Shown here: piece after piece, positions 1 to 12,898 of the stretch
How the letters are laid out: each line of letters begins with the position of its first letter
Numbering within the stretch: the first letter of the stretch is position 1
Source: a virus
Lineage: Duplodnaviria > Caudoviricetes
DNA length: 53,973 bases
Strand: one strand, 5' to 3'
Virus record (IMG/VR): IMGVR_UViG_3300042294_003360
Span: 1-53,973 of that record
Made by a program: the position numbers and the translations under genes
The notes under the pieces: generated by a model
Databases searched by the model: none
The model's input: only the letters and a program-made list of their open reading frames with translations
What the model was told of the DNA's origin: nothing

Positions 1-196
1 TATGAGTAGCAAGCATTCCAACCAAGACCCTGCTTGCTGCCCCCCGACACAGGCCCTGCATAGCAACCCATCAAGGACGCGAACGACGCGTGACCAACCC
101 CATAGCAGTGAGACAGCGAGTAGCGGCTGCCGAGTAGACCCTTCCCATAGGTCGATTTATCACCTGTGGGGCAACATAAGGGAGCTCGGTAGTGAC

Positions 197-252
197 GCGT
201 GTCCGCGACTACATTCGTCGCGCTGAAGATGGGGCAGCACCCCGAAACACGT
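197..252 (+). ncRNA. Hammerhead ribozyme, type III (HH0)
   Basis: GCGTG-TC | stem I CGCGAC/GTCGCG (204-222) | CTGAAGA (223-229) | extra T | stem II GGGG-cagca-CCCC | GAAA | CACGT. Predicted cleavage after C203 (GUC). Confidence 0.8.
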
Positions 253-264
253 AAACCGAACGAC

Positions 265-468
265 ATGAACTACGCACAGGCACTTAAAACGCTCCGCTTC
301 GCCAAAGAAATTTATGTTTATGTGGTCTACTCAAATGTCGGCACGTTCGTCAAACTTGACAAAACGGCCATCGTAAAGCAGTTCCTTGAAATGGATGAAG
401 AAGAGTTCGATGGCGTTGAATTCAATGTCCGCCTTGTGGACGATGGCACGACTGCTCTCATCGGTTGA
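265..468 (+). CDS. Small early hypothetical protein (MNYAQALK...)
   Basis: In-frame ATG at 265 of ORF 199..468, just after HH0. Confidence 0.75.
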   Translation: MNYAQALKTLRFAKEIYVYVVYSNVGTFVKLDKTAIVKQFLEMDEEEFDGVEFNVRLVDDGTTALIG

Positions 469-509
469 TGCAGATATACTGACATTACTTGGATGTCATT
501 TGACATTCT

Positions 510-548
510 ACCCTGCACTGGTTGGGCGGTTCGATTCCGCAGCAGGGT
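510..548 (+). ncRNA. Mini-tRNA-like element T1
   Basis: ACCCTGC/GCAGGGT stem, linker ACTGGTTGG, GCGG-TTCGATT-CCGC T-arm, followed by CTAAA. Confidence 0.8.
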
Positions 549-562
549 CTAAATTCATTCCC

Positions 563-733
563 ATGTACACCATCACGGAAGTGACACACTACATCACGGG
601 AGAGCGCGGATATGCCGTCATCGACGAAAACGGGATGTATGCCGATGGCGAGTTCTATTCCAGTGAGAGCGAGGCTCTTGCAGCAGCCGCTGACCTTGAG
701 TTGTATGATTCCCCCGCCCCACAGGTGAACTGA
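563..733 (+). CDS. Small acidic early hypothetical protein (MYTITEV...)
   Basis: ATG at 563. Its stop is the TGA within the CTGATGA core of HH1. Confidence 0.7.
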   Translation: MYTITEVTHYITGERGYAVIDENGMYADGEFYSSESEALAAAADLELYDSPAPQVN

Positions 734-775
734 TGAGGCTTTATGAGCCGAAACCGCCACATGGCGGTCTTCACC
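724..775 (+). ncRNA. Hammerhead ribozyme, type I (HH1)
   Basis: GGTGAA-CTGATGA-GGCT(ttatg)AGCC-GAAA-CCGCC(acat)GGCGG-TC-TTCACC. Canonical core, predicted cleavage after C769. Confidence 0.95.
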
Positions 776-788
776 AAAAAATACACGC

Positions 789-1079
789 ATGTCAAAATCA
801 GCAACCCCCTTCAAGCACAACAACGGGTTCTTTCGCTACATGGACTGCTCCACATGCCACATCCGCAAGGATGTAAGCAAATCCATCACGGACATTGAAT
901 CTCTCATCGTATATCCCCATGATTACGGATGGTGGGTCTTTGTTCCCGAGGAAATTTATGACGATGTACCCAAGTGCCTTCGTGACATCCTCTTTTACGC
1001 ACGGGGCGGCAACGCTCAGTGGGTCAAGTTGGATGTAGATGGATGGACATGGGACGCTCTGCCCAAGTATAATTGGTAG
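789..1079 (+). CDS. Early hypothetical protein
   Basis: 96-aa ORF starting 19 nt after the HH1 cleavage site. Confidence 0.8.
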   Translation: MSKSATPFKHNNGFFRYMDCSTCHIRKDVSKSITDIESLIVYPHDYGWWVFVPEEIYDDVPKCLRDILFYARGGNAQWVKLDVDGWTWDALPKYNW

Positions 1080-1093
1080 TCCACAGACCTACA

Positions 1094-1145
1094 GGTTAAC
1101 TGATGAGCGGTCAATCCGCGAAACCGCCCACGGGCGGTCTTAACC
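1094..1145 (+). ncRNA. Hammerhead ribozyme, type I (HH2)
   Basis: GGTTAA-CTGATGA-GCGG(tcaat)CCGC-GAAA-CCGCC(cacg)GGCGG-TC-TTAACC. Predicted cleavage after C1139. Confidence 0.95.
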
Positions 1146-1158
1146 AAAAAAACGCGCA

Positions 1159-1563
1159 ATGAAGTACGTAATCGTCCACACATGGAACGGAGAGGGCTAC
1201 TCTTCGGGAAACACCGCAGAGGTGATGGAGTTCTCTTCCGATGACAAGGCGCAGCAGTACATCGTCGAGCAGGCGCAGCAGGAAGCCAATGCGCTTGCTG
1301 AATTCACGGAAGAATGGGGCAATGTATCCTTCGACGATGACGAAGACCAAGGCTCGGTTCAATGGTTCGCGTTCACCACCGACACCTATGGGGTGGTCAT
1401 CCGAACCAACGTCAACGAGGCGCAACTCGTGAACGAGCAGGAGTACCACGAGCAGCTGAAGGCAGCCCTCGCGCAGGCCGACCCCGAGGAGGAGGTTGAG
1501 GATGAGAATCCGTTCATCTCCGCGTACGATGGGGAGTACGATTATCAGTTCATCAAGTTCTGA
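1159..1563 (+). CDS. Highly acidic early hypothetical protein
   Basis: 134-aa D/E-rich ORF, 19 nt after the HH2 cleavage site. Confidence 0.85.
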   Translation: MKYVIVHTWNGEGYSSGNTAEVMEFSSDDKAQQYIVEQAQQEANALAEFTEEWGNVSFDDDEDQGSVQWFAFTTDTYGVVIRTNVNEAQLVNEQEYHEQLKAALAQADPEEEVEDENPFISAYDGEYDYQFIKF

Positions 1564-1578
1564 TTCCCCCGACCCACA

Positions 1579-1628
1579 GGTTAACTGACGAGCCTTCAGT
1601 AGGCGAAACCCCTTCGGGGGTCTTAACC
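1579..1628 (+). ncRNA. Hammerhead ribozyme, type I (HH3)
   Basis: GGTTAA-CTGACGA-GCCT(tcagt)AGGC-GAAA-CCCC(ttcg)GGGG-TC-TTAACC. Predicted cleavage after C1622. Confidence 0.95.
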
Positions 1629-1642
1629 ATAAAAAACGCGCC

Positions 1643-1822
1643 ATGAGCAAACGCAAAAGCTACCTGCTGATTGCCGCCATCATCATCTTGGCGGCTCTCG
1701 CGGACAACCTGTCCGACAATCCGCAGGATCACCCAAAAGAGCCTGCGCACACCTGCACCGATACAACCCACGCCACCTGCGATGGGCAGTGCCAGTGTGA
1801 TGGAATGGAATGCACGGAGTGA
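1643..1822 (+). CDS. 59-aa protein with hydrophobic N-terminus and Cys-rich C-terminus (not in ORF track)
   Basis: MSKRKSYLLIAAIIILAALA...CTDTTHATCDGQCQCDGMECTE*, 20 nt after the HH3 cleavage site. Confidence 0.75.
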   Translation: MSKRKSYLLIAAIIILAALADNLSDNPQDHPKEPAHTCTDTTHATCDGQCQCDGMECTE

Positions 1823-1855
1823 TGGTCTTCGGTCGGTTCGACTCCGACCGCTCCG
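1815..1855 (+). ncRNA. Mini-tRNA-like element T2
   Basis: CGGAGT/GCTCCG, linker GATGGTCTTC, GGTCGG-TTCGACT-CCGACC, then CTAAA. Confidence 0.8.
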
Positions 1856-1894
1856 CTAAACTGCGCTGCACAGAATCATGCAGCACCGCGCACC

Positions 1895-2068
1895 ATGGAA
1901 CAAGTAAAAAAAGCCGCCATCACGGCACAACTAAAGAACCTCGAAGAGGCGTATGCCATCCTCGAGCAGTGGGCCACATCAGTAGGTGGTGACGAGGTAG
2001 CAAAAGAGGCCAACTCCATTTGGCAGAGGGCTATCCTCGATTTGTTGGCCGCAATGGATGGCGAATAG
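1895..2068 (+). CDS. 57-aa early hypothetical protein (MEQVKKAA...; not in ORF track)
   Basis: ATG 1895 to TAG 2068, filling the slot between T2 and T3. Confidence 0.75.
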   Translation: MEQVKKAAITAQLKNLEEAYAILEQWATSVGGDEVAKEANSIWQRAILDLLAAMDGE

Positions 2069-2077
2069 CCCCCCCCC

Positions 2078-2122
2078 AACCTGCTCCCGCAGAGGGCAGC
2101 CAGTTCGTGACTGGCGCAGGTT
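2078..2122 (+). ncRNA. Mini-tRNA-like element T3
   Basis: AACCTGC/GCAGGTT, linker with mini-stem CCC-gcaga-GGG, GCCAG-TTCGTGA-CTGGC. Preceded by a poly-C tract. Confidence 0.75.
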
Positions 2123-2133
2123 CAAAAAAAGCT

Positions 2134-2165
2134 TTTGCAGTTTTCCACAAACCATTCTACATTTG
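2134..2165 (+). promoter_or_regulatory. Bacteroidota primary-sigma promoter
   Basis: TTTG (2134-2137), 20-nt spacer, TACATTTG (2158-2165). Matches the -33/-7 consensus TTTG-N19-21-TAnnTTTG. Confidence 0.75.
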
Positions 2166-2181
2166 TCAAAAATCACCCACC

Positions 2182-2517
2182 ATGAACACCTACAAGTTCC
2201 AATTCAAGTCCAAGTCGGGCACTTGGGCAGACGTTCACACGATGAACTTCTACGCCGCGAATCTTGACGATGCCGTCAAGCAGGCCAACCTGTACAAGTC
2301 GCAGCACGACATCGTCCACATGATGTTCCTGTCCGTTAGTGATGTTCGCAGAACCATCTCGGTTGGCGAACTTATCGACCGGCTGATGCAGGTAGAGGAC
2401 AAGTCGCTCCCTGTGTTCATCTACAACGATGGCGAAAGGCACGAGTTGTGCGAGTCCGTCCCTGTGGATGACACAATCGAGGGGCAGGTCGATATCAATG
2501 TAAAGATCGAGAACTGA
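2182..2517 (+). CDS. Early hypothetical protein (MNTYKFQF...)
   Basis: In-frame ATG 2182 of ORF 2020..2517. Confidence 0.8.
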   Translation: MNTYKFQFKSKSGTWADVHTMNFYAANLDDAVKQANLYKSQHDIVHMMFLSVSDVRRTISVGELIDRLMQVEDKSLPVFIYNDGERHELCESVPVDDTIEGQVDINVKIEN

Positions 2518-2553
2518 TTGGATGCAGGCGGGGTTCGACTCCCCGCCCAGTTC
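2511..2553 (+). ncRNA. Mini-tRNA-like element T4
   Basis: GAACTG/CAGTTC, linker ATTGGATGCA, GGCGGGG-TTCGACT-CCCCGCC, then CTAAA. Confidence 0.85.
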
Positions 2554-2567
2554 CTAAACTATCCACC

Positions 2568-2834
2568 ATGAAGCGCATCAGCAAGCAAGCAAAAGCCATC
2601 GCGGACGCCCACATTGAGGCCCGCAAGTCCGGCAACTTTGACAACCCTCGCTGCACCACCCGAGATGAGGTCATAGCTGCCCTCCGCGAGGGCAAGACCA
2701 TCGAGGCCGTCCTCGATCAAGTGGAGACCAAGTTCACCTCCATCCATGCCATCATCCTGTCAAGGGTTCTCTTCCATGAGAGCCACAACTACAGGTCGGG
2801 AGTCTACAAGGGTTTCCGTATCCTGCTCGACTGA
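2568..2834 (+). CDS. Early hypothetical protein
   Basis: 88-aa ORF between T4 and T5. Confidence 0.8.
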   Translation: MKRISKQAKAIADAHIEARKSGNFDNPRCTTRDEVIAALREGKTIEAVLDQVETKFTSIHAIILSRVLFHESHNYRSGVYKGFRILLD

Positions 2835-2841
2835 TTCCCCC

Positions 2842-2885
2842 GAACTGCTATGGTATCCGATCGGGTTCGACTCCCGATGCAGTTC
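2842..2885 (+). ncRNA. Mini-tRNA-like element T5
   Basis: GAACTGC/GCAGTTC, linker TATGGTATCCG, ATCGGG-TTCGACT-CCCGAT, then CTAAA. Confidence 0.85.
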
Positions 2886-2900
2886 CTAAACTACACCACC

Positions 2901-3080
2901 ATGACACACGAAAATGTCAGCACCGCGTCCGGCCTCACCGAAGAGCAGAAGAAGGTCATCCTGTATGCCTACCTCGACCTCAAAGGTTCGATGGAATCTC
3001 CCAACGACCACGATTACGATGGTCAGAAGCAGACCATCAAGGAACTTGAGGAGATGTTCCCCTTCGTCAAGGAGGCATAG
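2901..3080 (+). CDS. Small early hypothetical protein (MTHENVST...)
   Basis: In-frame ATG 2901. Confidence 0.8.
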   Translation: MTHENVSTASGLTEEQKKVILYAYLDLKGSMESPNDHDYDGQKQTIKELEEMFPFVKEA

Positions 3081-3088
3081 TCCCCCCC

Positions 3089-3134
3089 GAACTGATAGCA
3101 TAGGGCGCAGGCGGTTCGACTCCGCCATCAGTTC
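3089..3134 (+). ncRNA. Mini-tRNA-like element T6
   Basis: GAACTGAT/ATCAGTTC, linker AGCATAGGGCGCA, GGCGG-TTCGACT-CCGCC. Confidence 0.85.
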
Positions 3135-3153
3135 CTCAACAAACCAAACACGC

Positions 3154-3549
3154 ATGAAACACATGAACGACATCGACGGCAACATCCTCCGCAAAGGAGA
3201 CTCTGTAGTAGTACTTGATACCTCCGAACTGGAAGGCGAGACGCCCATCCGAGGCATGCTCCTGCATGTGGCAGGAGGTGACCCCGAATCCAACTACATC
3301 GACTTCGGTTCGTACGGATTCTACGGCCACCGGGTTCTCAAAATAAAGGGGAATCTCTACCCCACTGACTACGTCATCTTCGATGGCACGGACGCGGTCC
3401 GTTTCAGCAACGGAGACATCATCGTCTATTCCGACATGATGGAGGCGGTTCGCGACTCCGAAGGGGTTGTAGGTTGGGGCGTCACCCCCTGCACCTCTCT
3501 CCCTGTACACCTACAGGAGGAATTGCGCAGGCAGGTGGCGCAGAACTGA
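3154..3549 (+). CDS. Early hypothetical protein (MKHMNDID...)
   Basis: In-frame ATG 3154 of ORF 2914..3549. Confidence 0.8.
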   Translation: MKHMNDIDGNILRKGDSVVVLDTSELEGETPIRGMLLHVAGGDPESNYIDFGSYGFYGHRVLKIKGNLYPTDYVIFDGTDAVRFSNGDIIVYSDMMEAVRDSEGVVGWGVTPCTSLPVHLQEELRRQVAQN

Positions 3550-3556
3550 TCCCCCC

Positions 3557-3602
3557 GAACTGGCAGGAAAGACCGAACGCAGAGCGATACTGCGGCCAGT
3601 TC
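3557..3602 (+). ncRNA. Mini-tRNA-like element T7 (variant loop)
   Basis: GAACTGGC/GCCAGTTC, linker AGGAAAGACCGAA, CGCAG-AGCGATA-CTGCG, then CTAAA. Confidence 0.7.
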
Positions 3603-3617
3603 CTAAAACCAAACACC

Positions 3618-4058
3618 ATGAAGTACACGCACAGGATTACGGCAAGCGTCCCGACCATTTATCAGTACGGCAGCATCAACAGGCTGATGGCAGCCGATGT
3701 AAAGAAATGGCCGGACGGCTCGTTCCACGCCCACATCGACTTCCTCGACTACGAGTCGGCAGAGCTTCACCTTCTCGCCCTCGCCATCAAACTGGCAGAG
3801 AACGACAAGGAGCAGGAGGCGATGGAGGAGGAGGTTCAGAGGTATGGTCAGCTGACATACGACAACTGCACCGCCAATCTCGTGGAGATCGACTACCCTT
3901 GGGCCGTCGAAATCCGCAGCAACGGCGAGGTTCTCGGAGAGTTTGAAACCTACGAGGAGGCGGCGGCCTACCTGCATGAACAGGAGCAGGATGACAGGGA
4001 CAACGACCAGTACGAGGAGGACTACTACTACCTCCGCAGGGTCGGTTGGCCGGCATGA
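3618..4058 (+). CDS. Acidic early hypothetical protein (MKYTHRIT...)
   Basis: In-frame ATG 3618 of ORF 3474..4058. Confidence 0.8.
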   Translation: MKYTHRITASVPTIYQYGSINRLMAADVKKWPDGSFHAHIDFLDYESAELHLLALAIKLAENDKEQEAMEEEVQRYGQLTYDNCTANLVEIDYPWAVEIRSNGEVLGEFETYEEAAAYLHEQEQDDRDNDQYEEDYYYLRRVGWPA

Positions 4059-4059
4059 C

Positions 4060-4100
4060 AGGGCGATGGTCGCAGGGGAGGCTCGACTCCTCCCCGCCCT
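4060..4100 (+). ncRNA. Mini-tRNA-like element T8
   Basis: AGGGC/GCCCT, linker GATGGTCGCA, GGGGAGG-CTCGACT-CCTCCCC, then TCTAAA. Confidence 0.8.
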
Positions 4101-4116
4101 TCTAAATCAACACACC

Positions 4117-4530
4117 ATGAACATGGGAATCTCAAGGGTTGAAGGCCACCCCGACGAATTGGTCTTGAAGTACAACCAGTACCTGCACACATTAGGTACT
4201 GAAAAAATGCTGGCTGCTATGGAGAGGTTCATCGTAAGTGACGCGATGCCCGAACTGATTGGGCACATACAGGACGAGGTCTTCGCAGACCTGTCAAGTA
4301 TGGTCTATGCCCTCGACGAGGGGTGGGTTCTTACCTACACAAGCACGGACACATACCGACTTGAAAAGGAGGACGGCTCGGACAGGTTCGCATCTGATGC
4401 ACAGGCAGTCGAGCACGTCTACAGGGAGGCGTTCTACGGATCGAAAATCCACAAGGAGGCGGTAGCATTCATGGCTGCCCATGCGACACCCGATGAGATT
4501 AAATTCATCGCGCGGTGCGCAAGCGTCTGA
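4117..4530 (+). CDS. Early hypothetical protein (MNMGISRV...)
   Basis: In-frame ATG 4117 of ORF 3943..4530. Confidence 0.8.
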   Translation: MNMGISRVEGHPDELVLKYNQYLHTLGTEKMLAAMERFIVSDAMPELIGHIQDEVFADLSSMVYALDEGWVLTYTSTDTYRLEKEDGSDRFASDAQAVEHVYREAFYGSKIHKEAVAFMAAHATPDEIKFIARCASV

Positions 4531-4573
4531 CAGGGCGATGGTCGCAGGAGGGGTTCGTCTCCCCTCCGCCCTG
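4531..4573 (+). ncRNA. Mini-tRNA-like element T9
   Basis: CAGGGC/GCCCTG, linker GATGGTCGCA, GGAGGGG-TTCGTCT-CCCCTCC, then CTAAA. Confidence 0.8.
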
Positions 4574-4610
4574 CTAAACTGAGTCCGGCAGCATCCGGAC
4601 ATCAACAACC

Positions 4611-4814
4611 ATGACAAACAGAGACAAAGACCTGCTCGAGGTGCTGTACCTCTTCCTCGAGCAGAACGAGGCCAAGCTCCGCGAGGAGTACGAAGAGGTT
4701 CGGGAGGGTCTTGAGGCCATGAACCACCCGATGACCTACCCGCAGTTCTGCGTGACCATGTTTACCGGATTCATGGAGGACAAACAGGTCAACATCACCT
4801 CACAATTAAACTGA
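4611..4814 (+). CDS. Small early hypothetical protein
   Basis: 67-aa ORF after T9. Confidence 0.8.
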   Translation: MTNRDKDLLEVLYLFLEQNEAKLREEYEEVREGLEAMNHPMTYPQFCVTMFTGFMEDKQVNITSQLN

Positions 4815-4815
4815 C

Positions 4816-4905
4816 ATGTACGCAGCAACCATCGCACTCATCATCATCGCAGCAGCCGCAGCAGCCAAGGGTCTCAACGGCCCGGAGGACATCACCAAAT
4901 ACTGA
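4816..4905 (+). CDS. 29-aa hydrophobic peptide (MYAATIALIIIAAAAAAKG...)
   Basis: ATG 1 nt after the previous stop, ends just before a terminator hairpin. Confidence 0.5.
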   Translation: MYAATIALIIIAAAAAAKGLNGPEDITKY

Positions 4906-4911
4906 ACACAA

Positions 4912-4947
4912 CCCCCGAGGGTTACACTTCGGGGGCGTTCATTTTTT
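4912..4947 (+). terminator. Intrinsic terminator closing the early cassette array
   Basis: CCCCCGAGG-gttaca-CTTCGGGGG hairpin, then TTTTTT after a short gap. Confidence 0.6.
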
Positions 4948-4959
4948 AAAAAAGAAAAC

Positions 4960-5157
4960 ATGCAAGACTTAACATTCGAGCAGTGGCTCGTTCACATCAG
5001 ACGCGAATTAGGTTACCAACCCGAAATGATCAAAAGGTATGAAGCAGCAATCGGAACTACGCAAGGTATTCAGAGCGGTACACAACGCCCTGCAAGAACT
5101 GGAAGGAATGACTCCAAGCAAAAGAAAAAAGACCATCCTGTCGCTGATGGAGATTAA
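4960..5157 (+). CDS. Hypothetical protein
   Basis: ATG after an A-rich leader. Overlaps the next ORF. Confidence 0.55.
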   Translation: MQDLTFEQWLVHIRRELGYQPEMIKRYEAAIGTTQGIQSGTQRPARTGRNDSKQKKKDHPVADGD

Positions 5158-5239
5158 CATGGACTTGGAAGAAAAGATTATCGAACATCTAAACAAATCC
5201 AATGAGAGAGTATCAGAAGATTCGCCAGTACATTCTTGA
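5039..5239 (+). CDS. Hypothetical protein
   Basis: 66-aa helical-looking ORF. Confidence 0.6.
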   Translation: MKQQSELRKVFRAVHNALQELEGMTPSKRKKTILSLMEINMDLEEKIIEHLNKSNERVSEDSPVHS

Positions 5240-5546
5240 GAAGTACCTCATCGACATCAACGACAGGTGCAGGGCTTTGCCTCGAGCCTATCTGAAGGCC
5301 ATCGCAAGCAATGTCCTCAACAAGATGTACGACTTTAACCACGCACAGATATCAGCATGGCTCGGCATCCACCGAACCACCATCTACCACTACCTCGAGC
5401 ATCACGATGGGAAGTACCAGTGCCATCCCGGCTATGGAGAGATGTTCGATGACGTGTGGGGATACATGATGGGGCAGCCGGACATCGTGGTCAATCTAAA
5501 CGAGATAAAGCAAATCCTATGCGATACATTCGGGACGGAAGAGTAA
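5202..5546 (+). CDS. HTH DNA-binding protein resembling the DnaA C-terminal domain
   Basis: AQISAWLGIHRTTIYHY resembles the DnaA domain IV HTH (EIG..FGGRDHTTV.HA). Confidence 0.6.
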   Translation: MREYQKIRQYILEKYLIDINDRCRALPRAYLKAIASNVLNKMYDFNHAQISAWLGIHRTTIYHYLEHHDGKYQCHPGYGEMFDDVWGYMMGQPDIVVNLNEIKQILCDTFGTEE

Positions 5547-6634
5547 TCGTCGTGAAGGACGGAATGACGCACGACACAGGCATCCGCGCGTATCACCACA
5601 GGTTCGGCAGCAGGGGGTGTTTCCTTGGCGAATTCTCCTACACCCAATGGGCGAACACGGCCATCGACAAGTTCTCCAATGGAGAACCGATAGGCGAATG
5701 GAAGGACGATTCAATCGGTGGGTACTGCGAGAGGTACGTGCATCAAATGCACACAGGGGAGATTCGTTCCAACAGGGGGACGCCCTACTCGGCCAACTCC
5801 ATCAAGACCTACTCCAACGCAGCCTCCTGCCTATACAGGTACGGCAAAGGAATCCGACTGGACTCCGACAGGAAAGCCTACAGGGAATTCTTCAAGTCAT
5901 TCGAGCATTGGCTCGAGCGTTCGATGAATGCCAAGAGTAGGTTCGAGATCGTGAACGCCATCCGCATCATGGTTCGTTACTGGTGCAGGGAGTTAGACCT
6001 GCCCATCCCGGAGACACACCGCATGGCCAAGACCGAGAAGCCCATCGTGGTCGTTCCCCCCGAACTGATATCCAAGGTGGTCAGCGATGACAGGTTCATG
6101 GGCACTCTCATCCAACCCCATTGGGAGGTGGCGGTGACCATCCTTCTGACCACGCTTCGCCTTTCGGACATCCAGTCGCTGCGACCCGAGCATCTCGAGG
6201 GTGGGTTCATCGTGAAGGACACACAAAAGACCGGGCAGAGGGTGACCATCCCGATCCCCGAGAGGCTGCGTGAAATCTTCAGCCGAAACCTAAAGAACGG
6301 GAGCCTGTGGTCGGGCCCGATCGACAACATCCATGGCGGTCTGAAGTTGGTTTTCCAAAAGTATCCCGAGATGTGGGAGATGCACACCGCAGGGGTTACC
6401 CAGTACCTGTGGGAATTCGTCACCCCCCACATGCTGCGAAAGTCAGCCATCACAGGTCTGATTTTTTTCGGGGTGGATCACATCAGTGTCCGCCATGCCT
6501 CCGGCCACAGCCAAAACTCTTCCGCATTTTGGAAGTACGTCAAGGTCGTGGACTCAAGGTTCAAGTCAGCCATCTCGGACGGGCATGCTGCGATGTTGAA
6601 AACTATTTCCACAACCAGTTCGCAACCTTCCTAA
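5519..6634 (+). CDS. Tyrosine recombinase/integrase family protein
   Basis: Catalytic set: TTLRLSD (R), QKTG (K), HMLRKS (HxxR), SGHS (H), WKYV (Y). Start uncertain. Confidence 0.85.
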   Translation: MRYIRDGRVIVVKDGMTHDTGIRAYHHRFGSRGCFLGEFSYTQWANTAIDKFSNGEPIGEWKDDSIGGYCERYVHQMHTGEIRSNRGTPYSANSIKTYSNAASCLYRYGKGIRLDSDRKAYREFFKSFEHWLERSMNAKSRFEIVNAIRIMVRYWCRELDLPIPETHRMAKTEKPIVVVPPELISKVVSDDRFMGTLIQPHWEVAVTILLTTLRLSDIQSLRPEHLEGGFIVKDTQKTGQRVTIPIPERLREIFSRNLKNGSLWSGPIDNIHGGLKLVFQKYPEMWEMHTAGVTQYLWEFVTPHMLRKSAITGLIFFGVDHISVRHASGHSQNSSAFWKYVKVVDSRFKSAISDGHAAMLKTISTTSSQPS

Positions 6635-12481: not shown

Positions 12482-12572
12482 TGCGGGGTGGCAGAATGGC
12501 AAATGCAGGCTCATGGCATTAGTCTGGACACAAGAAGCCCAGTCCACGCAGGTTCGATTCCTGCCCCCGCAG
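12482..12572 (+). tRNA. Atypical tRNA-like RNA (long variable arm, degenerate anticodon arm, nominal GGC)
   Basis: TGCGGGG/CCCCGCA acceptor, D arm GCA-gaatggcaaa-TGC, T arm GCAGG-TTCGATT-CCTGC. Confidence 0.7.
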
Positions 12573-12625
12573 CAGTTTGTTTCATGGTGTATTTTTCCCG
12601 GGGCGTTTCTACGCCCGGGGTTTAT

Positions 12626-12721
12626 CGGAGGGTGGCGGAATGGAAGACGCGCCGAAAGGTAGGTACGGTATGAATCCCGATTAAACAATCCTTATTGCAG
12701 GTTCGATTCCTGCCCCTCCGG
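12626..12721 (+). tRNA. Atypical tRNA-like RNA without a canonical anticodon arm
   Basis: CGGAGGG/CCCTCCG acceptor, D arm GCG-gaatggaaga-CGC, T arm GCAGG-TTCGATT-CCTGC. Irregular middle. Confidence 0.7.
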
Positions 12722-12780
12722 CAACAGCAGTTGGTTTTACCGGCCCGTTTCCACGGGCTGGATTTCTAAAAGACTAAGCA

Positions 12781-12885
12781 TCCCGGTTGGCGTAAGCCCC
12801 AATGAATAAGGCTCAAGGTAACGCCCCAACAGGAATCCCCTCCTTAATAGGTTGGGAGATGCGGGTTCGAGTCCCGCACCGGGAG
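12781..12885 (+). tRNA. Atypical tRNA-like RNA with expanded D and anticodon loops
   Basis: TCCCGGT/ACCGGGA acceptor, GCGT/ACGC D stem with inserted hairpin, CCAAC/GTTGG stem with 20-nt loop, T arm GCGGG-TTCGAGT-CCCGC. Confidence 0.7.
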
Positions 12886-12898
12886 CAAAAAAACAAAC

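Follow-up and report, generated by a model that had tools for sequence, protein, structure and literature searches.

The question raised by this locus is what a row of short tRNA-like helices does when it is placed, gap after gap, between the small genes of an early operon in a phage of Bacteroidota. The locus lies in IMG/VR virus record IMGVR_UViG_3300042294_003360 (Caudoviricetes), whose 53,973 bases, with a completeness of about 80%, were analysed whole and are here called the window. The operon (260-4905) contains about 16 small open reading frames (ORFs) on the + strand and shows compact structure in 12 inter-ORF gaps: nine mini-tRNA-like elements, T1-T9, and three type-I hammerhead-like motifs, HH1-HH3. 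The nine mini-tRNAs share one structure and belong to a family that shows covariation in its stems, rules of spacing to the neighbouring stop and start codons and a common signature in the 3' tail. The answer towards which we lean is that they are operon punctuation, which host tRNA-end-processing enzymes would cut, releasing single-gene mRNAs.

Anatomy of the nine elements

A sequence-only reading of this DNA had placed nine such elements within 510..4573, and all of them were located there, on the + strand and between ORFs. They range from 39 to 46 nt. Their geometry is given here as outer pairs plus inner pairs, followed by the E-value (E) obtained with covariance model R1, which is described in the next section. 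T1 (510..548; 7+4 bp with one unpaired A or mismatch; E 4.4e-5) shows a 9-nt linker with TGG, the loop TTCGATT and the tail CTAAA, and an ATG lies 14 nt past its helix end. T2 (1815..1855; 5+7 bp; E 8.3e-5) shows the linker TGATGGTCTT and the loop TTCGACT, and the upstream stop TGA (1820-1822) is within the element. T3 (2078..2122; 7+5 bp; E 0.011) shows the loop TTCGTGA and the tail CAAAAAAA, and its 14-nt linker folds as a 3-bp D-arm-like hairpin, a subclass also found in contigs L039, L085 and L138. T4 (2511..2553; 6+7 bp; E 5.7e-8) contains the linker ATTGGATGCA, the loop TTCGACT and the tail CTAAAC, and its outer stem is overlapped by the upstream stop TGA (2515-2517). T5 (2842..2885; 7+6 bp; E 1.2e-16) has the same loop and tail as T4 and the linker TATGGTATCCG. 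T6 (3089..3134; E 1.3e-9) and T7 (3557..3602; E 3e-5) are both 8+5 bp with a 13-nt mini-hairpin linker: T6 has the loop TTCGACT and the tail CTCAAC, and T7 the non-canonical loop AGCGATA and the tail CTAAAA. T8 (4060..4100; 5+7 bp; E 5.1e-4) and T9 (4531..4573; 6+7 bp; E 0.0048) show the linker GATGGTCGCA; T8 has the loop CTCGACT and a T before its CTAAA, and T9, which begins right after the upstream stop, has the loop TTCGTCT and the tail CTAAAC.

All nine elements have 12-13 helix positions, T1 with one mismatch, and linkers of 9-14 nt containing GG, in agreement with the sequence-only reading, and seven of the nine loops fit YTCGWYT. The CTAAA that the same reading had given as usual for the 3' side agrees as well: seven elements show a tail of this type, T3 and T6 being the exceptions. 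The closing G-C pair and the loop TTCGAYT match the T-arm motif GGTTCRANYCC, and the anatomy is of the t-element and mascRNA kind: an acceptor stem coaxial with the T-arm, about 12 bp, and a T-loop of the GGTTCRANYCC type.

T2 and T9 are each followed by an extra hairpin (1856-1894 and 4574-4610), which separates their CTAAAC tail from the next ATG. Its position is kept in the related contig L009 (4786-4818), and it may stabilise the 5' end of the mRNA that is released. T3 is followed by a TTTG ... TAcaTTTG motif (2134-2165), which we take to fit the Bacteroides promoter consensus.

Scans, folding and covariance model

A strict scan of the 53,973-base record, limited to Watson-Crick pairs and requiring a 7-nt loop, an uninterrupted 3' strand, a 5' linker of 5-18 nt and at least 11 pairs, gave eight matches on the + strand, all within 1815-4573, and one on the - strand. 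It misses T1, because of the mismatch, and this element was recovered by R1 and by its minimum free energy (MFE) fold. The scan becomes non-discriminating when G-U pairs are permitted (44 vs 51 matches). MFE folds give the proposed structure in eight of the nine, T2 favouring an alternative inner pairing, and the energy z-scores are modest (-0.5 to -4.0), the folding energies being only slightly better than those of shuffles. Since the G-U scan and the folding energies are weak, the case rests on sequence comparison and not on thermodynamics. Seventeen elements from other contigs, and no window sequence, went into R1, and the window was searched with filters off. Its ten best matches in the window are the nine elements (E 1.2e-16 to 0.011) and a tRNA-like gene (12835-12895; E 0.0037), and the matches below these have E-values of at least 0.06. 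A model derived from other phage contigs thus recovers every element.

Nothing in Rfam 15 matches T1-T9, either at the gathering threshold or at E<=10. At the same two thresholds the Rfam tRNA model (RF00005), which finds the true tRNAs of related loci, finds nothing on the nine, and neither do the twister, twister-sister, pistol, hatchet, HDV-like and hairpin models. ARAGORN calls neither a tRNA among the nine nor a tmRNA in the window. At gathering, the window and 50 related loci contain only tRNA, GOLLD and one permuted tmRNA, and no known self-cleaving Rfam class was found in the related loci. A literature search gave no description of such elements, the term 'minihelix' being outside the search and subscription journals mostly outside its reach.

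Three other assignments were rejected. None of the nine is called as an intrinsic terminator, and the sole convincing + strand site is the terminator-like hairpin at 4912-4935, which with its T-run (4912..4945) closes the small-gene operon. The tRNA-like domain of tmRNA is discarded as well: the elements show no tag frame and no 3' CCA end, they are internal to the operon, and ARAGORN finds no tmRNA. Attachment-site remnants of tRNA genes are ruled out by the nine copies and by their differing, compensated stems, each with a 5' acceptor strand.

The family in other phages

An outer-stem pattern led to many viral loci; most lone matches are due to chance, and a dozen contigs contain several elements each. 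Fifty-one unique elements, each with at least 12 Watson-Crick pairs, were gathered. They include subclasses in which linker and loop change in concert. Subclass 1 shows a 10-11 nt linker, RATGGTYNYA, and the loop TTCGAYT. Subclass 2 shows a 13-nt linker with a mini-hairpin of 2-3 bp, whose pairs covary, and loops such as AGCGATA, ATCGAAA and CTCGTYA. Subclass 3, to which T3 belongs, shows a 14-16 nt linker with a hairpin of 3-5 bp and the loop YTCGTGA. Loop positions 3-4 are C-G in every loop accepted by the scan, whose loop filter demanded C-G, and the loop-closing G-C pair is invariant across three alignments. The linker contains an invariant ATGG in 13/13 aligned elements and TGG in 8/8. 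An elbow mimic, as which the elements had been interpreted, would fit the invariant linker ATGG and the loop C-G. In GAAC-type elements the first pair is mostly G-C, and 11 of them show the 8+5 geometry.

The three alignments show many double changes at paired positions, in sequences that had been preselected for pairing, so more weight is given to R1, to the linker and loop motif and to a control in bacterial genomes. The motif (one type of linker plus the loop, stems unspecified) is found in 107 viral loci with 93 unique sequences. All six inner pairs are Watson-Crick in 69 of the 93, and in 50 these also carry a stack of five or more outer pairs. The outer stems of the 50 have many sequences with no relation to one another, and the GC content ranges from 28 to 66%. 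In the control, the GAAC-type pattern gave 18 matches in bacterial genomes, about the chance expectation; none of the 18 folds, and no prophage copy of this subclass was found in the species set. The observation is confirmed as real and the family as large.

Among the contigs related to the window, L009 and L010 (identical in sequence) and L012 contain mini-tRNA-type elements on the coding strand; the stems differ and the linkers recur. T2 is kept in L009, where its outer stem shows compensatory changes by eye. Five whole related records contain 26 R1 matches, on one strand and in one cluster of 2-4 kb per record, R1 having been built partly from these records. R1 also finds unannotated matches in two named phages: Flavobacterium phage FL-1 (KY421186.2; L269 3989-4045; E 2e-6), 19 nt before a coding sequence, and Streptococcus phage Javan141 (MK448681.1; L270 ~2215-2275 and 2500-2532; E 2.6e-5). 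In Javan141 a second 8+5 element is seen nearby by eye. R1 found no mini-tRNA in the first 25.7 kb of Cellulophaga phage phi19:1 or in Riemerella phage PJN03 (29.8 kb). A variant class is located in the same kind of gap in L009 (4189-4250 and 4517-4570), L012 (2690-2745) and L024 (- strand, near 1771-1815). Its layout is a short hairpin, TG, a 3-bp arm with a TTCGAT loop, in which a pair covaries, and RA, all enclosed by the outer stem.

The linker and loop motif also finds elements beside the tRNA arrays of large phages. In five loci a GOLLD RNA (RF02032, 260-307 bits) shows a mini-tRNA within 8 nt of its 3' end: L201 1082-1535, L208 1070-1536, L230 1490-1947, and L166 and L237, both at ~1490-1954. 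This position directly 3' of GOLLD fits end-processing and argues for a general end-making role that would be independent of translation. In L195 and L213 a weak tRNA match adjoins GOLLD in place of the mini-tRNA.

Spacing to stop and start codons

In the 51-element set, 44 cases have a clear upstream ORF, and in 23 of them its stop codon ends 6-7 nt short of the element, although this stop-to-element spacing is partly selected, as many loci came from patterns that fixed the outer stem and the C-run. The gap is usually a run of C. On the start side, the next ATG lies 14-21 nt past the helix in 33/45, with a mode of 18-20 nt, and the leader between helix and ATG is A/C-rich and G-poor. In the window this distance is 14-19 nt for six elements (T1 and T4-T8) and 37-59 nt for T2, T9 and T3, in which the extra hairpin or the promoter motif intervenes. 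C-runs of 5-9 between the upstream stop and the element are seen in the window at 2068-2077, 2835-2841, 3082-3088 and 3550-3556 and in most relatives, and the hammerheads likewise have C-rich 5' flanks.

Hammerheads and true tRNAs in equivalent positions

The three remaining marks of the operon, all on the + strand, show the sequence and fold of type-I hammerheads with a GUC triplet. A hammerhead has three stems around the core CUGANGA ... GAAA, and its cleavage triplet ends in H. HH1 (724-775) has its predicted cut at 769/770, 19 nt before the ATG at 789, and the upstream stop is in its CTGATGA core. HH2 (1094-1145) has its predicted cut at 1139/1140, 19 nt before the ATG at 1159, and HH3 (1579-1628), with the core CTGACGA, at 1622/1623, 20 nt before the ATG at 1643. 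Their consensus is GGTKAA-CTGAYGA ... GAAA ... GTC/TTMACC. Five strict type-I hammerheads from the window, L017 and L054 show cut-to-ATG distances of 19, 19, 20, 19 and 22 nt, and a further one in L009, identified by eye, 19 nt. This distance matches the usual one between the helix end of a mini-tRNA and the ATG.

A small Cys-rich membrane protein (1643-1822) has HH3 in front of its gene, whose stop is the one overlapped by T2. By eye, the mark in front of the orthologous gene in L009 (41% identity) is a variant tRNA-like element whose T-like arm measures 3 bp, and in L012 it is an apparent type-III hammerhead (2236-2296), which ends 4 nt before the ATG and is uncalled by Rfam. Different marks before an orthologous gene suggest that marks of different kinds replace one another, though gene order differs too.

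True tRNAs without an encoded CCA are found in related contigs, each followed by an ATG 12-22 nt on. In the window itself, three oversized tRNA-like genes of 92-106 nt (12482-12886, + strand), without encoded CCA and with hairpins between them, are located between two ORFs; the third ends 13 nt before the ATG of a methyltransferase gene (12899). With introns permitted, and not otherwise, ARAGORN recognises the second and the third, whereas none of the three is called by Rfam. In L041 a tRNA with the anticodon CTA (amber-reading; 3783-3861) lies 14 nt before an ORF, which hints at stop-codon reassignment in that lineage.

The 3' tail and tRNA processing

Counted from the T-loop, the fourteenth base is C in 88 of 106 elements, and this position 14 corresponds to tRNA C74, because 12 helix positions and the discriminator precede it. 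This C is found in 31/38 twelve-pair elements, in 20/20 thirteen-pair elements with other stems and in 35/35 thirteen-pair GAAC-type elements, and is mostly followed by T. The phage tRNAs show C74 in 7/8, with T next in five. For comparison with hosts, 29 tRNA genes were taken from two Bacteroidota genomes that had been reached via chance loci. Of these, 23 show N73-C74, the next base being A in 13, T in 9, G in 1 and C in none, and CCA is encoded in 6/29. N73-C74-U is thus common to the elements, the phage tRNAs and tRNA genes of the two Bacteroidota genomes, which suggests that the elements copy the 3' processing site of a CCA-less pre-tRNA. RNase Z of Bacillus is reportedly activated by a downstream U. 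For human RNase Z, PMC11649783 gives the two C's of CCA as an anti-determinant, in which case C-U would be permissive.

Proposed role and its alternatives

In the mechanism that we favour, the polycistronic RNA would fold and host tRNA-end-processing enzymes would recognise each mimic by its shape. The selected cut would be on the 3' side, at or beside the discriminator, and of RNase Z type, before or after C74. It would give the downstream gene an mRNA of its own, whose leader would be short, A/C-rich and free of structure, and leave the upstream mRNA with a stable tRNA-like helix at its end, a potential CCA acceptor. RNase P may cut the 5' edge too. Self-cleavage by the three hammerheads of the operon would serve the same end, as would full tRNAs in related phages. 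Among 45 ORFs of the window no RNA-processing enzyme turned up, and host enzymes are therefore the likely actors. We infer the cleavage, the enzymes responsible and any benefit for translation or stability. The sequence-only reading had offered three functions: host-nuclease processing signals, decoys for tRNA-targeting defences and an unrecognised self-cleaving motif. The first gains support from the gaps shared with hammerheads and tRNAs, the same spacing to the ATG, the N73-C74-U tail and the kept acceptor plus T length; decoys draw no specific support, although released mini-tRNAs are possible, and a self-cleaving motif is unlikely, as set out below.

Besides the selection for pairing and for spacing mentioned above, several points weigh against the punctuation reading. 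The C is at position 13 in T1, T2, T3 and 5/5 twelve-pair GAAC-type elements, and eleven-pair matches show it at position 14 in 2/8 only. Loops such as AGCGATA, in several subclasses, are without the canonical T54/A58 letters. RNase Z is above the curated cut-off in one of the two Bacteroidota genomes and below it in the other, a Muribaculaceae genome that is an incomplete metagenome-assembled genome, and some RNase Z enzymes are reportedly inhibited by long 5' extensions. Among the window hammerheads, HH1 reaches 17.6 bits to the Rfam model Hammerhead_3, against a threshold of 48.5, and the other two give no match. The type-III-like motif of L012, if real, would be cut on its 5' side and leave a structured leader, which breaks the short-leader rule. 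Finally, the upstream stop is located 1-8 nt inside the 5' strand in 7/44 elements, including T2 and T4. An RNase P cut at the 5' edge of these would yield a stop-less mRNA, so the RNase P half of the model is not general, and the 5' cut would not be the step fixed by selection.

The alternative that survives best, which we nevertheless consider unlikely, is that the elements are not cut at all and act as structural insulators or cassette borders, blocking 3' exonucleases, uncoupling cistrons or serving as recombination joints for the shuffling of early genes. The promoter-stem-loop cassettes of T4-type phages would be the precedent. The flanks, consisting of the C-run, GAAC ... GTTCC and the A/C-rich leader, are highly conserved around variable genes, the helices are stable, and the gene order differs between the window and L009, where the elements stay with their genes. 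A plain hairpin would suffice for such a role, however, and it leaves unexplained the T-loop, the D-loop-like GG, the 12-13 bp and the C74-type tail, which are kept at a GC content of 28-66%; the equivalence with hammerheads and true tRNAs also points to cleavage.

Less probable still is that the product is the point, with punctuation as a by-product: RNase P and RNase Z would excise CCA-tailed RNAs of about 45 nt, which would act as decoys or sponges for proteins that bind the acceptor or the elbow, such as defence nucleases, modification enzymes or a synthetase. With up to nine copies per early operon the output would be high, elbow-type invariants are kept, and large phages have copies that lie beside tRNA arrays and GOLLD, at a distance from ORF starts. 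The first G-C pair and the 8+5 geometry of the GAAC-type elements also favour it, the pair resembling, as we take it, the extra G(-1):C73 of tRNA-His. Decoys leave unexplained the tight spacing to stop and ATG and the interchange with hammerheads, which make no such product. The stems drift freely, which implies no sequence-specific partner, anticodon nucleases cannot be decoyed by an RNA with no anticodon arm, and the stops inside seven elements oppose routine 5' excision.

A new class of self-cleaving ribozyme that resembles a minihelix by chance is very improbable: the elements share their neighbourhood with hammerheads and match no Rfam family, and association with known self-cleavers has reportedly led to new ribozyme classes, but there is no common conserved junction, the linker being replaced wholesale (an unstructured 10-mer, a 13-nt mini-hairpin or a 14-16 nt hairpin) with the tRNA-like shape kept, what persists across subclasses is limited to the length of the helix, the C-G of the loop and the pair that closes it, the putative cut site at the helix end lies beside unconserved single strands, and the conserved features are exactly those of tRNA.

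Beyond operon punctuation, a wider reading is put forward tentatively, with less confidence than the punctuation itself. The mini-tRNAs may be a large undescribed class (39-46 nt) by which phages of Bacteroidota, and apparently of other hosts, borrow host tRNA maturation as a general RNA cutter. The class would punctuate operons interchangeably with hammerheads and tRNAs and would set the 3' ends of GOLLD in the manner of mascRNA, and CCA-tailed minihelices may be charged, or bound as decoys.

Genomic setting

The window contains ORFs encoding Erf-like and RecE-like recombination proteins, a primase/helicase, a DNA methyltransferase and tail proteins. Two ORFs match crAss-virus muzzle-protein families, in one case with a score under the curated cut-off. 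Among cultured phages, the primase/helicase has its nearest relatives (31-34% identity) in phages of Riemerella, Cellulophaga, Tenacibaculum and Flavobacterium, all of them Bacteroidota, and human faecal phage contigs are also among its best matches. A search of 50,697 phage records with positions 1-6000 of the window gave no nucleotide match, and a search with the RecE-like protein led to four related contigs (59-62% identity). A long non-coding leader (1-260) is located 5' of the first small ORF and by eye shows blocks in common with L009 3300-3620; this conserved leader, with L012 ~1860-2300, may be a structured 5' RNA.

Comparison with known systems and significance

In animal mitochondria, tRNAs located between genes are excised and the mRNAs are thereby released. 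The phages are alike in that true tRNAs occupy the same positions as mini-tRNAs in related phages, and differ in that most of the marks are non-functional as tRNAs and ribozymes share the role. With mascRNA, at the 3' end of MALAT1, and with the tRNA-like element of MEN-beta, a long RNA acquires its end when RNase P and RNase Z cut the tRNA-like part. GOLLD with a mini-tRNA directly 3' of it shows the same layout, whereas mascRNA is a cloverleaf with a poorly conserved anticodon arm, eukaryotic and present in a single copy. The tRNA-like domain of tmRNA also shows an acceptor stem, a T-arm and a stem-less D-loop analogue with GG; the mini-tRNAs are without its mRNA-like region, pseudoknots and 3' CCA end.

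The t-elements of plant mitochondria were found via the T-arm motif GGTTCRANYCC and are non-canonical tRNA-like structures embedded in mRNA precursors, with ends that coincide with the 5' or 3' ends of mRNAs; they were proposed as signals for RNase Z and/or RNase P, alongside true tRNAs doing likewise (Forner et al., 2007; PMC1920247). The mini-tRNAs share the T-arm motif, but the t-elements described there are organellar, whereas the mini-tRNAs are found in phages, are much smaller at 39-46 nt and show no anticodon-arm remnant; they are serial, nine per operon, with fixed spacing to stop and ATG, and mixed with hammerheads. Tandem hammerheads that flank small prophage genes cut polycistronic RNA in vitro and in E. 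coli (Perreault et al., 2011; PMC3088659). The accessible part of that text mentions no tRNA-like partner, and in the present operon the hammerheads are a minority, 3 of 12 marks. The mini-tRNAs are new in four respects: they occur in a phage of bacteria, they are extremely reduced in size, they are used serially with a fixed spacing, and ribozymes and true tRNAs are interspersed with them.

The mini-tRNAs are compact natural parts for multi-gene expression. Engineered arrays of tRNAs and ribozymes, which process guide RNAs, are comparable as parts. Flavobacterium phage FL-1, which carries a mini-tRNA-like element, is a tractable system. If the cuts are real, a widespread RNA family that is now invisible to Rfam and ARAGORN would join annotation, and a lead would be gained on the origin of the 3' ends of GOLLD RNA. 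The hammerheads between phage genes would be explained as one of three interchangeable means: ribozyme, tRNA and mini-tRNA. Each of the three would divide the operon into mRNAs of one gene, with a short leader, in hosts that make no use of Shine-Dalgarno pairing, and tRNA punctuation would extend from organelles to phages.

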